Positions 3,699-34,802 of a stretch of 38,423 nt of DNA are shown piece by piece. A program made the translations under genes and the position numbers. The stretch is from a virus (lineage: Duplodnaviria > Heunggongvirae > Uroviricota > Caudoviricetes). The notes below the pieces were generated by a model. That model made no database searches, had not been told where the DNA came from, and was given only the letters and a program-made list of their open reading frames with translations. How positions within the stretch are numbered: position 1 is the stretch's first letter; every line of letters starts with the position of its first letter. Location of the stretch: the IMG/VR virus record IMGVR_UViG_2778261634_000009, positions 1 to 38,423 of that record. The stretch is one strand, 5' to 3'.

Positions 3699-4375
3699 GC
3701 GGCGTTTTCCTTAATTTGATGAACATTATTGATGCCGTAGTAATCACAAACAGTGGCATCGACGAAAGAGAGATCGTTATCAATCTCATTGGAATCAAAC
3801 ATTCCCATTGGGGATTTAACAGTGTCTGCACCGTTGTTTTTCGTGGTGAAAAAGAACTGGTCATCGCGGGTAAGAGTGCGAAGAACTATAGTAAACATGC
3901 CTTCGACAGTGATTTTCTCGTCCAGCATTTTGCCGATAGTTTTCATTTTCACGCGCCCCATAGGGGTTTCTTCGGTATGTGCAAGAAAATAGACTCTCAG
4001 GTCATCAGGTGCATCCTGTGCAGCCTTAATCACCTCCCATGCGTGGCGGCCTATCTCAGTAAATTTATCAAACGATTTTTCTTCTGAGCGGCGCATAAAC
4101 TCATTGCTCATCACATACTGGAAGTCATCAACAATAACGATTCTTTTTCCGTATTCGTGAGCACGCTTAATTACAGCAACTATTACGTCCCATTTGTCAG
4201 TGGTAACTACGGTTCCTTTTTTTGCTCTGGCATCCCATGCAAGCCAGTCTTTTGATTTAAATGGTAGCGGCTTGCCTATTGGTTTTATAAGTATTGCTTC
4301 CTCTGGATTGATATTTCTCATGCTGGTTGATTTTCCGGTGCCAGATTCACCGAGTATTAATATCGCAGTTCCCAT
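3695..4375 (-). CDS. Sak4-like RecA-fold ATPase (phage single-strand annealing / recombination protein)
   Basis: 226-aa ORF with Walker A GESGTGKS near the N-terminus and hhhhDD Walker B (IVIVDD); sits where erf or bet lie in related phages. Confidence 0.8.
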   Translation of the reverse strand: MGTAILILGESGTGKSTSMRNINPEEAILIKPIGKPLPFKSKDWLAWDARAKKGTVVTTDKWDVIVAVIKRAHEYGKRIVIVDDFQYVMSNEFMRRSEEKSFDKFTEIGRHAWEVIKAAQDAPDDLRVYFLAHTEETPMGRVKMKTIGKMLDEKITVEGMFTIVLRTLTRDDQFFFTTKNNGADTVKSPMGMFDSNEIDNDLSFVDATVCDYYGINNVHQIKENAA

Positions 4376-32891: not shown

Positions 32892-32908
32892 CTAAATGCC
32901 ATGGATGG

Positions 32909-33097
32909 TTATTTCCCTAGCACATGAAACAATGTTTGCTTTAATTCCACCCATACAATTATGACCACTATAGACAGACAAAAGAAACTGAATGCATTGG
33001 CATCACGATCGAAACCTTCTCCGGCACTAAATCCGTAAAAGGTCATAAAAAATATAAAAATTGCGCACTTTGCAACGTTTACAAATTTTTTCTTCAC
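32909..33097 (-). CDS. small two-segment membrane protein (moron), GTG start
   Basis: 62-aa ORF with two hydrophobic helices; GTG start preceded by TAAGGAGGT with 5-nt spacer; AT-rich; convergent with gene 16 and divergent from the lipoprotein gene. Confidence 0.5.
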   Translation of the reverse strand: MKKKFVNVAKCAIFIFFMTFYGFSAGEGFDRDANAFSFFCLSIVVIIVWVELKQTLFHVLGK

Positions 33098-33214
33098 ACC
33101 AACCTCCTTAGTTTTTAGCAGGATACCATGAAAAAAGTAAACATCTTTTGCCTACTTCACATTTGAATGGTTTGTCATTAGGATGTTTCCGGTTTTTTAA
33201 ATATGGAAATTGAT

Positions 33215-33634
33215 ATGAAGAGGATTATTGGCGTCGTTGCTGGCGCTATGATGTTATCTGGGTGCGCAACTATTGTTGGTGATGAAACGCAACTTGTGCA
33301 AGTGAACAGCAACCCTTCCGGTGCGAGCTTTAAGGTAAAAGATGAATCAGGCGTGATTGTTGCGCAAGGCAAGACTCCACAAGGAGTAACTCTTGCCAAG
33401 TCAGATGGTAGTTATTTTGGCAAAAAGAGCTACCAGATCACTATGGAAAAGGATGGGTACGAACCAGTTACCCTGCCAATCAAAGCCAATGCTAATGGTT
33501 GGTATATTGGTGGAAACCTTGTGTTTGGTGGGTTAATTGGTTGGCTTGCTGTTGATCCATTTAATGGTGGGATGTATACATTGAAGCCAAAAGAGGCAAA
33601 TGCATCTCTTATACCTTCCACGAAGCAAGATTAA
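33215..33634 (+). CDS. PEGA-like domain lipoprotein (moron)
   Basis: Signal peptide MKRIIGVVAGAMMLSGC with lipobox L-S-G-C; PEGA-like beta-domain pattern (NSNPSGASFKV...GKTPQGVTL...YQITMEKDGYEPVT); glycine-rich C-terminal segment; own terminator. Confidence 0.7.
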   Translation: MKRIIGVVAGAMMLSGCATIVGDETQLVQVNSNPSGASFKVKDESGVIVAQGKTPQGVTLAKSDGSYFGKKSYQITMEKDGYEPVTLPIKANANGWYIGGNLVFGGLIGWLAVDPFNGGMYTLKPKEANASLIPSTKQD

Positions 33635-33641
33635 GAAATGA

Positions 33642-33667
33642 AACCCACCGTCAGGTGGGTTTTTTAT
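33642..33667. terminator. intrinsic terminator between convergent lipoprotein and ClpP-like genes (likely bidirectional)
   Basis: 8-bp GC-rich stem AACCCACC / GGTGGGTT with 4-nt loop followed by TTTTTAT on the plus strand; T-rich flank also on the minus strand. Confidence 0.7.
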
Positions 33668-33690
33668 AAGGAGTAATCATGATTTACCCA

Positions 33691-34227
33691 TCAAACAACC
33701 CACCAGTTTGCCTGATTGGATACCAGCCTTGCAGTTTTTATGGAATTAATTATGCCATGCTCAAGAGCCTTGTTAGCATCCAAAATGGTCGAGTCTGCTA
33801 TCAGGGATGCCCACCTAATATGGGTTCCGATGTCGATATTGAACGTCTCAACGAAGCGATCAAGATCGTTATCGAGGCATTTCCCGTACTCTCTCAATCT
33901 GGCATGGTCGGCGGCTGGGGTGGCAAAGCCCCATAATAGAGGATGTAACAGGAATCTTGATAATGGGTTTGCGAAACGCTCTGAGCCAGCCAGGAAAACG
34001 ATATTAGCTATGGATTCAACATTGCTTATGTTGTGAGTTCTAACGGTAACAGGGAGTGACTTAAGAAAGTTATACGCAGTAAAACCAGCGGCAGTTTCCC
34101 CTCCCTGACTTGATATATGGATATTTAATTCAGTTGCGCCTTGAGATAATGCGGTGAGACAGTGGTTCTGAAGTTGCCCAACAGTGGCGGTGTTAACGGG
34201 GCATAAGAAATGAATTGTGTGCAGCAT
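33691..34227 (-). CDS. ClpP-family (S14) serine protease-like protein, stand-alone
   Basis: 178-aa ORF; IHISSQGGETAAGFTAY and SIANIVFLAGSERFANPLSRFLLHPLLWG align by eye with E. coli ClpP YINSPGGVITAGMSIY and [31 protein letters not shown], conserving the catalytic Ser and His positions; start codon overlaps the mnt stop (TAATG). Confidence 0.75.
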   Translation of the reverse strand: MLHTIHFLCPVNTATVGQLQNHCLTALSQGATELNIHISSQGGETAAGFTAYNFLKSLPVTVRTHNISNVESIANIVFLAGSERFANPLSRFLLHPLLWGFATPAADHARLREYGKCLDNDLDRFVETFNIDIGTHIRWASLIADSTILDANKALEHGIINSIKTARLVSNQANWWVV

Positions 34228-34481
34228 TATTTATCATCCTTGCCATAAATCTTTTTAAGTGTCTCAAATACAACAGTCTTGAACTGCTCTGCCTGCTGAT
34301 CAGCCAAGCGTTCAGCTTCGTCGCGATAGCCAGTCACAGGCGATGGTTTTGATAGAGCATCTTGGACGATTTGTAACAACTCGGAGTTCATTGATCTCCC
34401 ATTCGCCTCCGCCCTGAATTTTAATTTCTCCCTTACTTCCATAGGCATACGGAAGTTAAAGTGCGGATCATCTCTAGCCAT
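34227..34481 (-). CDS. mnt: Mnt repressor (ribbon-helix-helix), maintenance of lysogeny in immI
   Basis: 84-aa ORF MARDDPHFNFRMPMEVREKLKFRAEANGRSMNSELLQIVQDAL... matches P22 Mnt as remembered. Confidence 0.9.
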   Translation of the reverse strand: MARDDPHFNFRMPMEVREKLKFRAEANGRSMNSELLQIVQDALSKPSPVTGYRDEAERLADQQAEQFKTVVFETLKKIYGKDDK

Positions 34482-34503: not shown

Positions 34504-34555
34504 TTGACATGATAGAAGCACTCTACTATATTCTCAATAGGTCCACGGTGGGCCT
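34504..34555. promoter_or_regulatory. immI control region: Pant promoter with Arc operator and Mnt operator (divergent Pmnt)
   Basis: -35 TTGACA (34504..34509) and -10 TATATT (34527..34532); Arc-operator-like TGATAGAAGCACTCTACTATA between them; 17-bp near-palindrome AGGTCCACGGTGGGCCT (34539..34555) resembling the P22 Mnt operator. Confidence 0.6.
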
Positions 34556-34571
34556 ATATTGTGAGGTGAAT

Positions 34572-34733
34572 ATGAAAGGAATGAGCAAAATGCCGCAGTT
34601 CAATTTGCGGTGGCCTAAAGAAGTATTGGATTTGGTCCGCAAGGTGGCGGAAGAGAATGGTCGGTCTGTTAACTCTGAGATTTATCAGAGAGTAATGGAA
34701 AGCTTTAAGAAGGAAGGGCGCATTGGCGCGTAA
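34572..34733 (+). CDS. arc: Arc repressor (ribbon-helix-helix)
   Basis: MKGMSKMPQFNLRWPKEVLDLVRKVAEENGRSVNSEIYQRVMESFKKEGRIGA, essentially P22 Arc (53 aa) as remembered; track ORF 34509..34733 is an upstream extension into the promoter. Confidence 0.9.
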   Translation: MKGMSKMPQFNLRWPKEVLDLVRKVAEENGRSVNSEIYQRVMESFKKEGRIGA

Positions 34734-34802
34734 AGTTGAAGCCCCAACTGCTGGAACAGTCAGGGCTTCGGTATCGTAAAACCACGCATAGGAATTAACG
34801 AC

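Follow-up and report, generated by a model that had tools for sequence, protein, structure and literature searches.

The 38,423-nucleotide (nt) IMG/VR virus record IMGVR_UViG_2778261634_000009, analyzed here as a whole and called the window, is that of a P22-like (Lederbergvirus) phage or prophage of Escherichia coli. Between its gene 16-type ejection gene and its immI genes lie two divergent genes, one for a 62-amino-acid (aa) predicted membrane protein, here called small62, and one for a predicted lipoprotein of the epsilon34 gp15 family. Judged from sequence, these are very probably two separate cassettes within the hypervariable 'ant moron'/sieA region, with small62 occupying the slot that holds sieA in P22 and the lipoprotein gene forming a self-contained moron. 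The region has already been described, as the 'ant moron' (Villafane et al., 2008) and as the sieA locus (Leavitt et al., 2024), and the novelty of the finding is modest. A first-pass annotation of the window had named both open reading frames (ORFs), the TAAGGAGGT-GTG start of small62, an LSGC lipobox in the lipoprotein, a divergent spacer and a hairpin, and all of these were recovered in place (Table 1). Its classification of the genes as moron-type also held, as they are envelope-targeted accessory genes in a variable region between gene 16 and immI, present or absent among syntenic relatives. The moron concept is said to come from Juhala and co-workers, in 2000, and from Cumby and co-workers, in 2012.

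The arrangement around small62 is that of P22. In P22, sieA lies on the minus strand 22 base pairs (bp) past the gene 16 stop codon, with an annotated sieA promoter (PsieA) just upstream. The window has the same layout, gene 16 being followed by a convergent minus-strand gene, with small62 in place of sieA and the two stop codons 17 bp apart. The sequence 5' of the GTG start reads ATGTTAACTTTTTTCATGGTATCCTGCACAAAACTAAGGAGGTTGGTGTG before P22 sieA and ATGTTTACTTTTTTCATGGTATCCTGCTAAAAACTAAGGAGGTTGGTGTG in the window, and about 50 nt are almost identical. A 34-nt block (TGGTATCCTGCnnAAAACTAAGGAGGTTGGTGTG) is invariant before P22 sieA, epsilon34 gene 14 (hkcB), a 75-aa ORF (orf75) of E. coli Nord122 and small62, and it also precedes the small62 of phiv205-1. 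This leader occurs once in the window and had no matches in shuffled sequences. Its Shine-Dalgarno sequence lies five bases 5' of the small62 GTG. We infer that the leader may act as a promoter, with TGgTATCCT as an extended −10 element. In P22 a single copy of sieA with 85 bp of upstream DNA is enough for full exclusion (Leavitt et al., 2024, PMC10883804).

An exact-match scan of IMG/VR for the leader returned at least 119 copies. Among the matches listed, 117 complete ORFs start at the leader's GTG and fall into 13 clusters, although the clustering was crude and two clusters share their C-terminal half, so that 12–13 families is the better count. A hydrophobic N-terminal 17-mer was found in 11 of the 13 clusters at the threshold set, and a twelfth resembles a signal peptide by eye. 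The cargoes, again among the matches listed, were a 129-aa signal-peptide protein (22 copies), two types of 109-aa transmembrane and coiled-coil protein (type a, 13 copies; type b, 12), SieA (11), the 107-aa hkcB (10), small62 (10), a 140-aa soluble protein (8), orf75 (8) and five further membrane or exported proteins (2–7 copies each). In effect the leader is a socket for expression: unrelated ORFs, nearly all encoding membrane or exported proteins, have replaced one another behind it. We therefore read small62 as an alternative cargo, one among many, of the slot from which sieA is expressed, as defined by position, leader, Shine-Dalgarno sequence and GTG. From its position, leader and topology, small62 may also share the expression pattern of SieA and its kind of function. 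One IMG/VR contig (L184) was seen to carry two leader copies about 1.8 kb apart (2339–2372 and 4104–4137), suggesting tandem sockets in some prophages.

The first-pass description of small62 as a two-helix membrane protein of 62 aa encoded on the minus strand was borne out. AlphaFold placed helices at residues 2–25 and 31–61 (predicted local distance difference test, pLDDT, 69), matching two hydrophobic stretches in the hydropathy profile. This hydropathy, the KKK at the N-terminus and an acidic GEGFDRD loop suggest an inner-membrane hairpin of N-in/C-in topology. The protein matches phrog_21338 over its full length (E = 4e-45). Its homologs form 15 protein clusters of at least 76% identity from Salmonella, Serratia and E. 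coli, all on the same 62-aa core, and in the P22-like prophages of these hosts the gene always stands directly after gene 16, beside gene-16 proteins of at least four different length types. Across four diverged DNA copies no frame but the annotated one is open, the length is constant at 62 codons and the ratio of nonsynonymous to synonymous substitution rates (dN/dS) is 0.19–0.41. The Serratia start codon is ATG. On these sequence comparisons we regard small62 as a genuine conserved gene under purifying selection.

The lipoprotein gene appears to carry its own signals. A candidate sigma-70 promoter, matching the consensus at 9 of 12 positions in a scan, lies in the 117-bp spacer between the small62 GTG (33097) and the lipoprotein ATG (33215). 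In an alignment of six loci its hexamers persist, as TTCACG/TAAGAT, in the diverged K56-43 copy despite a different intervening spacer, and in strain DP051 a mosaic junction falls just 5' of the −35. At the other end of the gene lies a bidirectional intrinsic terminator, with folding energies of −16.2 kcal/mol on the plus strand and −14.2 kcal/mol on the minus strand (z about −4 on both; 0 of 200 shuffles as good), which serves the lipoprotein gene on the one strand and an mnt/ClpP-like operon on the other. The epsilon34 annotation has a terminator at the equivalent place. Homology to epsilon34 spans 33095–33665, taking in spacer, gene and hairpin, and its end at 33665 suggests that the hairpin travels with the lipoprotein gene. 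The strong terminator of the first-pass annotation was thereby upheld by energy, shuffling and U-run alike. Its broader claim that the insert has its own promoter and terminator stood for the lipoprotein gene, with promoter footprint and hairpin; for small62, a terminator scan found none of its own and the promoter scan gave no match. In the same way, the divergent promoter region that it had put at roughly 120 bp is real as a 117-bp spacer with a lipoprotein promoter footprint, but the consensus scan found no leftward promoter there.

The same family was found in prophages of a very different type. HK97-like E. coli prophages and Proteus prophages have it between the genes for the tail chaperone (gpT) and the tape measure, the site occupied in HK97 by the exclusion moron gene 15 (PMC3594210), and in Pseudescherichia a homolog lies between gpI and gpJ. 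A terminator-like hairpin comes after each of these siphophage copies, from Proteus, Pseudescherichia and E. coli, and the one from Proteus is preceded by a promoter-like site as well. Wherever the gene was examined in a phage, it has the orientation of the late or tail operon. Close copies occur in roughly 110–120 of 5426 complete E. coli genomes, a figure estimated from an even sample of the match list. Taken together, promoter, gene and terminator are best read as a self-contained moron that is mobile between P22-like podophage and lambdoid siphophage prophages.

Translation of the lipoprotein gene almost certainly starts at the ATG at 33215, because a diverged relative lacks the ATG at 33203 and all homologs, as well as phrog_6823, begin MKR or MKK. 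The plus-strand ORF (33203–33634) and lipobox of the first-pass annotation were therefore retained, with the protein probably 139 rather than 143 aa long. The N-terminus reads MKR-IIGVVAGAMM-LSGC, and the lipobox matched the regular expression [LVI][ASTVI][GAS]C at residues 14–17 of the 139-aa form. Neither Cys17 nor Ala18 varies among 23 diverse homologs, whose mature form begins CATIVG. In Enterobacterales a lipoprotein with no Asp after the lipidated Cys is sorted by Lol to the outer membrane, and the invariant Ala at +2 thus predicts an outer-membrane location.

AlphaFold gave a lipoprotein model of mean pLDDT 74, with a beta-sandwich above 90 at residues 25–93. The predicted fold is a seven-stranded, prealbumin-like sandwich of the transthyretin/PEGA type, and only about 7 residues lie between the lipid anchor and the first strand, which should bring the sandwich up against the membrane. 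A PEGA-like beta domain had been proposed at the first pass; the fold agrees with this, while the Pfam PEGA match (PF08308) stays below threshold (17.5 bits against a gathering cut-off of 20.8; E = 0.004). The sandwich is followed by a low-confidence, Gly-rich helical segment (residues 96–113; KD19 = 1.3) and a short hairpin (121–131). The most conserved part of the protein, which defines the family, is an invariant C-terminal segment, NGWYIGGNxVFGGLIGWLxVDPFNGGMYTLxP. The Gly-zipper-like tail noted earlier is accordingly real as a Gly-rich tail, with partial GxxxG spacing (G95/G99 and G105/G109), but no Gly-zipper or Rick_17kDa_Anti family of Pfam matched at E ≤0.1.

The protein aligns with phrog_6823 over positions 1–139 of 139 (E = 8.8e-86), and its gene shares 94% DNA identity with epsilon34 gene 15. 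With a dN/dS of 0.03 among phage copies, it is to all appearances a real conserved gene under purifying selection. We found 726 close homologs and 5177 cluster representatives (E ≤1e-3), named 'hypothetical', 'PEGA domain-containing', 'transthyretin-like domain-containing', 'lipoprotein' or, by JGI, 'YceK'. One distant relative (P0120) has a precomputed PF08308 match. In NCBIfam, LEPBI_I2678_fam alone was matched, far below threshold and over the C-terminal part (22.8 bits against a cut-off of 240), and a PDB sequence search gave weak CnaB-type similarity at most. Ten long relatives were inspected; in nine the extension is only of low complexity or unassigned, and the tenth (P0157) is a fusion with an OmpA-type outer-membrane barrel. 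Relatives from non-enteric Proteobacteria are encoded by stand-alone chromosomal genes away from any phage genes, and in the contexts compared no conserved neighbors of the cellular homologs were found. The phage gene looks like a captured cellular gene, drawn from a large family of cellular lipoproteins. Many distant cellular relatives (among them P0120, P0108 and P0137) share a conserved C-terminal extension, ...VxLLxDVPxxLRxKLxxL, which is absent from the phage copies.

The distribution of the two genes argues that they assort independently. A close copy of either gene was present in 206 of 5426 complete E. coli genomes, and both stood side by side in 9 of the 206. Among 80 IMG/VR lipoprotein loci, counted as contigs of which many are nearly identical and so not as independent events, small62 was the divergent neighbor in 3; the left neighbor was otherwise the 129-aa signal-peptide protein (20), a 161-aa lipoprotein (17), hkcB-like transmembrane/coiled-coil proteins (12 and 11), orf75 (2) or nothing recognized (15). 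In Salmonella and Serratia prophages small62 follows the 161-aa lipoprotein gene, a Rap1a-like gene or a gene for a CI/LexA-like repressor, and in E. coli Survcare253 it faces a P63C-domain gene. We interpret the two as separate accessory cassettes, and the moron 'pair' or 'module' of the first-pass annotation did not survive these counts. The corresponding explanation, a single two-component module in which small62 would be the inner-membrane partner of an outer-membrane lipoprotein with a shared divergent promoter region, is very improbable. The genes are indeed neighbors with divergent orientation in the window, a few E. coli genomes that otherwise differ (such as JX21CE33, which is without the ClpP-like gene) likewise have them side by side, and the spacer bears signals for both. 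These points are outweighed by the rarity of the combination in both surveys, by the at least six other kinds of left neighbor, or none, beside the lipoprotein gene and its occurrence alone in siphophage tail operons, and by the other partners of small62 just listed.

We also considered whether SieA and the lipoprotein exclude one another. The lipoprotein was present at 0 of 12 SieA loci, some of them incomplete, where about 2 were expected, which is not significant. The 161-aa lipoprotein (MKKSLLIIPLLLAGC...; L027 1891–2376, minus strand; L016 3483–3968, plus strand), which precedes small62 in Salmonella prophages, is unrelated to the gp15 type, and the sieA-region locus seems to accumulate lipoproteins. 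In Serratia P22-like prophages (L018 3644–3991 and L020 3643–3999) the gene immediately upstream of small62 is Rap1a-like (PF18602, a type VI secretion immunity fold), a hint that the sieA-region hotspot also carries protection against non-phage attack.

By analogy with known systems we propose that both genes encode prophage-expressed envelope proteins which block the entry of other phages (superinfection exclusion), and we put the chance of this at a little below even. Both genes would be transcribed in the lysogen, small62 from the PsieA-type leader and the lipoprotein gene from its own sigma-70 promoter. As the latter is co-oriented with the late operon, antiterminated late transcripts running towards the tailspike gene should carry it too. 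small62 would insert in the inner membrane and, much like SieA, disturb the gp16/gp20 conduit through which superinfecting P22-like phages deliver their DNA. The lipoprotein would be lipidated at Cys17 and sorted by Lol to the inner leaflet of the outer membrane, where the beta-sandwich would be held against the membrane on its short tether and the Gly-rich helix would dip into the bilayer. There it might act on a conserved host envelope component (a porin, a secondary receptor or a periplasmic route) and so block the entry of other phages. A conserved host component is favored over fast-evolving phage proteins because of the low dN/dS of the lipoprotein and its presence in both podophage and siphophage prophages. 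A bolder version, in which the 34-nt leader would be a plug-and-play socket with at least 12 exclusion solutions, small62 a minimal gp16/gp20 blocker and the lipoprotein a new broad exclusion factor, we consider doubtful.

Several observations weigh against entry blocking. The window does not preserve the −35 annotated for P22 PsieA, which makes small62 expression here uncertain, and the consensus scan of the spacer had no leftward promoter. The Shine-Dalgarno sequence of the lipoprotein gene is weak. The C-terminal segment of the lipoprotein is only moderately hydrophobic and its model is of low confidence, so membrane insertion, and even the outer-membrane location, are not secure. Neither protein had a match in PADLOC-DB 2.0 at E ≤0.1. 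The lipoprotein family consists mostly of cellular, stand-alone genes, and the phage copy may accordingly serve the envelope in some ordinary way instead of excluding phages. Finally, a site next to the injection genes could merely reflect tolerated insertions (Villafane et al., 2008, PMC2629481).

Three other explanations have to be set beside entry blocking. The lipoprotein could be a lysogenic-conversion factor for host fitness with no anti-phage role, contributing to envelope robustness, serum/complement resistance or stress response, or simply doing what its cellular relatives do. There is a precedent in lambda Bor, and the combination of lipid anchor and Gly-rich membrane segment resembles that of SlyB/Pcp-type outer-membrane lipoproteins. 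The size and mainly cellular character of the family, with its stand-alone genes in non-enteric Proteobacteria, fit this idea, as do the lack of a PADLOC match and the dN/dS of 0.03, which is unusual in proteins that compete with phages in an arms race. However, the Enterobacterales copies examined are prophage-borne and sit where model phages have known exclusion genes, in the sieA region and at the HK97 gene 15 site, and Cor and Llp, outer-membrane lipoproteins known from phages, act in exclusion (PMC3594210). We hold a role in host fitness alone to be possible but unlikely. That the lipoprotein works mainly in lytic growth, like T5 Llp, as a late read-through product masking a receptor or envelope site and so sparing progeny virions from debris and infected cells, seems improbable. 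Its co-orientation with the late or tail operon speaks for such a role, and P22-like late transcripts must traverse the region to reach the tailspike gene (Villafane et al., 2008, PMC2629481); its own conserved promoter footprint and terminator, a hallmark of prophage-expressed morons, speak against it. A lytic role would in any case be compatible with entry blocking rather than exclusive of it.

For small62, the remaining explanation is a membrane-active toxin (holin-like, or an abortive-infection effector) or a decaying or poorly expressed remnant in this prophage. Class II holins and small membrane toxins resemble it in size and topology, as a 62-aa two-helix hairpin with charged ends. The missing leftward promoter in the scan and the fact that RefSeq and GenBank annotators usually leave the ORF uncalled point the same way. 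However, the gene is intact and of constant length in Salmonella, Serratia and E. coli with the dN/dS values given above, its start is preceded by the sieA leader and a near-perfect Shine-Dalgarno sequence, and the lysis genes of the window lie elsewhere. Moreover, the membrane protein SieA, behind the same leader, is expressed constitutively and is not toxic (PMC10883804). We judge a toxin or remnant to be quite improbable.

The coordinates of the two cassettes and their flanks are collected in Table 1. At the left border of the variable region, the gene 16-type ORF shares 99% DNA identity with the 'DNA transfer protein' genes of phages JEP4 and UPF_BP1. Downstream of the insert come mnt, arc, the sar RNA (34734–34801; 81 bits, Rfam) and ant. 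The flanks named in the first-pass annotation were correct, except that a ClpP-like gene separates the terminator from mnt. This gene and mnt have the same orientation and both end at the shared terminator; the ClpP-like start overlaps the mnt stop codon (ATGA), so co-transcription with the maintenance repressor is expected in a lysogen. To our knowledge, P22-like phages need no prohead protease. The insert had also been called AT-rich. The guanine-plus-cytosine content of small62 (0.349) and the spacer (0.325) agrees with this, but that of the lipoprotein gene (0.44) barely differs from the window mean (0.47); the insert as a whole, at 0.401, is in the 2.8th percentile among windows of the same size. 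An Rfam scan of the insert gave terminator-like noise at most, and a repeat search found none of note.

Table 1. Positions of the genes, protein segments and signals discussed in the text (window coordinates).
Feature	Position	Strand	Remarks
Gene 16-type ejection ('DNA transfer') protein, 624 aa	31017–32891	+	ORF; left border of the variable region
small62, predicted inner-membrane helical hairpin, 62 aa	32909–33097	−	ORF with GTG start
sieA-type leader TGGTATCCTGCTAAAAACTAAGGAGGTTGGTGTG	33095–33128	−	Holds Shine-Dalgarno TAAGGAGGT (33110–33102), GTG and possible extended −10 TGgTATCCT (33128–33120)
Candidate sigma-70 promoter	33156–33184	+	−35 TTCACA (33156–33161), 17-nt spacer, −10 TAGGAT (33179–33184)
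Lipoprotein, epsilon34 gp15 family, 139 aa	33215–33634	+	ORF open from 33203 (143 aa)
Lipoprotein signal peptide (predicted)	residues 1–16		
Predicted lipidated Cys17	33263–33265 (codon)		Ala at +2
Lipoprotein beta-sandwich	residues 25–93 (33287–33493)		
Conserved Gly-rich hydrophobic segment and hairpin	residues 94–125 (33494–33589)		
Bidirectional intrinsic terminator AAACCCACC-GTCA-GGTGGGTTT	33641–33662	both	U-run on plus strand
ClpP-like gene, 178 aa	33691–34227	−	Pfam Clp_protease, E = 4e-12; PDB 9uxt_A 'Clp protease', E = 5e-35
mnt	34227–34481	−	Pfam Arc and Repressor_Mnt

Some further features of the right flank were noted. The Ser, His and Asp positions of the ClpP-like protein seem conserved by eye. 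Wholly antisense inside its gene is an 85-aa plus-strand ORF (33679–33936) which matches phrog_7758 (E = 1e-61) and is probably a propagated annotation artefact. Divergent, overlapping Pant/Pmnt-like promoters were seen at 34504–34537 (11 and 10 of 12 consensus matches), and the listed arc ORF (34509–34733; 74 aa) probably begins at an internal MKGMSKMPQF, giving an Arc of P22 size (53 aa). The same cassette of ClpP-like, Arc/Mnt-like and antirepressor genes lies within the tail gene region of an HK97-like E. coli prophage (L009, 10809–12414), suggesting that the immI-type module, like the lipoprotein gene, moves between podophage and siphophage prophages.

Apart from the epsilon34 genome paper, the literature searched contained nothing on either protein, and no report of an invariant leader shared by a dozen swapped envelope cargoes, of the independence of small62 and the lipoprotein, or of the lipoprotein at the HK97 gene 15 site. 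Among P22-like phages 22 of 66, about a third, carry sieA (PMC10883804), and the contents of the slot in those without it are largely unstudied. If the leader cargoes are alternative exclusion proteins, they would form a natural panel of small membrane proteins with which to dissect the trans-envelope DNA channel of short-tailed phages. The lipoprotein is common, strongly conserved and found in very different prophage types, and a single phenotype would annotate thousands of proteins. Prophage-borne blocks to entry also bear on host-range prediction for phage therapy.

Of the systems already known, P22 SieA is closest to small62. Both lie in the same position and orientation, convergent on and directly after gene 16, behind the same 34-nt leader, Shine-Dalgarno sequence and GTG, and both are small predicted helical integral membrane proteins. 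They differ in that SieA has 162–164 aa and three transmembrane segments, against 62 aa and two helices, and in that the cytoplasmic SieA motif FxRYPxEAxxFNK is absent from small62. SieA proteins of types A to C are characterized by three or four such segments. With P22 SieA as the query (type A; types B and C were not part of the search), BLASTP and TBLASTN against small62 and the full window gave nothing below E 0.5. The absence of sequence similarity and the two helices rule out small62 as a homolog of type A SieA.

For the lipoprotein, epsilon34 gene 15 (phrog_6823) is of the same family and has the same promoter region and terminator; the divergent neighbor there is hkcB (gene 14) instead of small62, and mnt follows directly after the terminator. 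Genes 14 and 15 of epsilon34 were listed as of unknown function, in an 'ant moron' undergoing rapid flux (Villafane et al., 2008, PMC2629481). HK97 gp15 offers a parallel in position, since homologs of the lipoprotein occupy the same insertion site in HK97-like E. coli prophages in the same promoter- and terminator-flanked moron layout, and both appear to have been captured from cellular gene families. HK97 gp15 is a YebO-like inner-membrane exclusion protein for which a cellular origin has been argued (Cumby et al., 2012, reviewed in PMC3594210). The two are nonetheless unrelated, gp15 being a small single-pass inner-membrane protein and the lipoprotein a lipid-anchored beta-sandwich. The PEGA, transthyretin-like and carboxypeptidase-regulatory-like sandwiches are similar in fold, with the weak PEGA match described above, while the family-defining C-terminus fits no curated family above threshold.

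Lastly, Cor (phi80, N15 and HK022) and Llp (T5) are, like the lipoprotein, small phage lipoproteins with a predicted or known outer-membrane location and action from the periplasmic side. The first-pass annotation had drawn a 'Cor-type' comparison, which failed at the level of descent: the sole similarity to the Cor PHROG (phrog_1119) covers signal-peptide residues 5–24 (E = 0.0036), and we rejected the lipoprotein as a Cor homolog. It shares no homology with Cor or Llp, from which it also differs in fold and size. As an analogy of mechanism, however, we consider these FhuA-inactivating proteins the best precedent for the lipoprotein.

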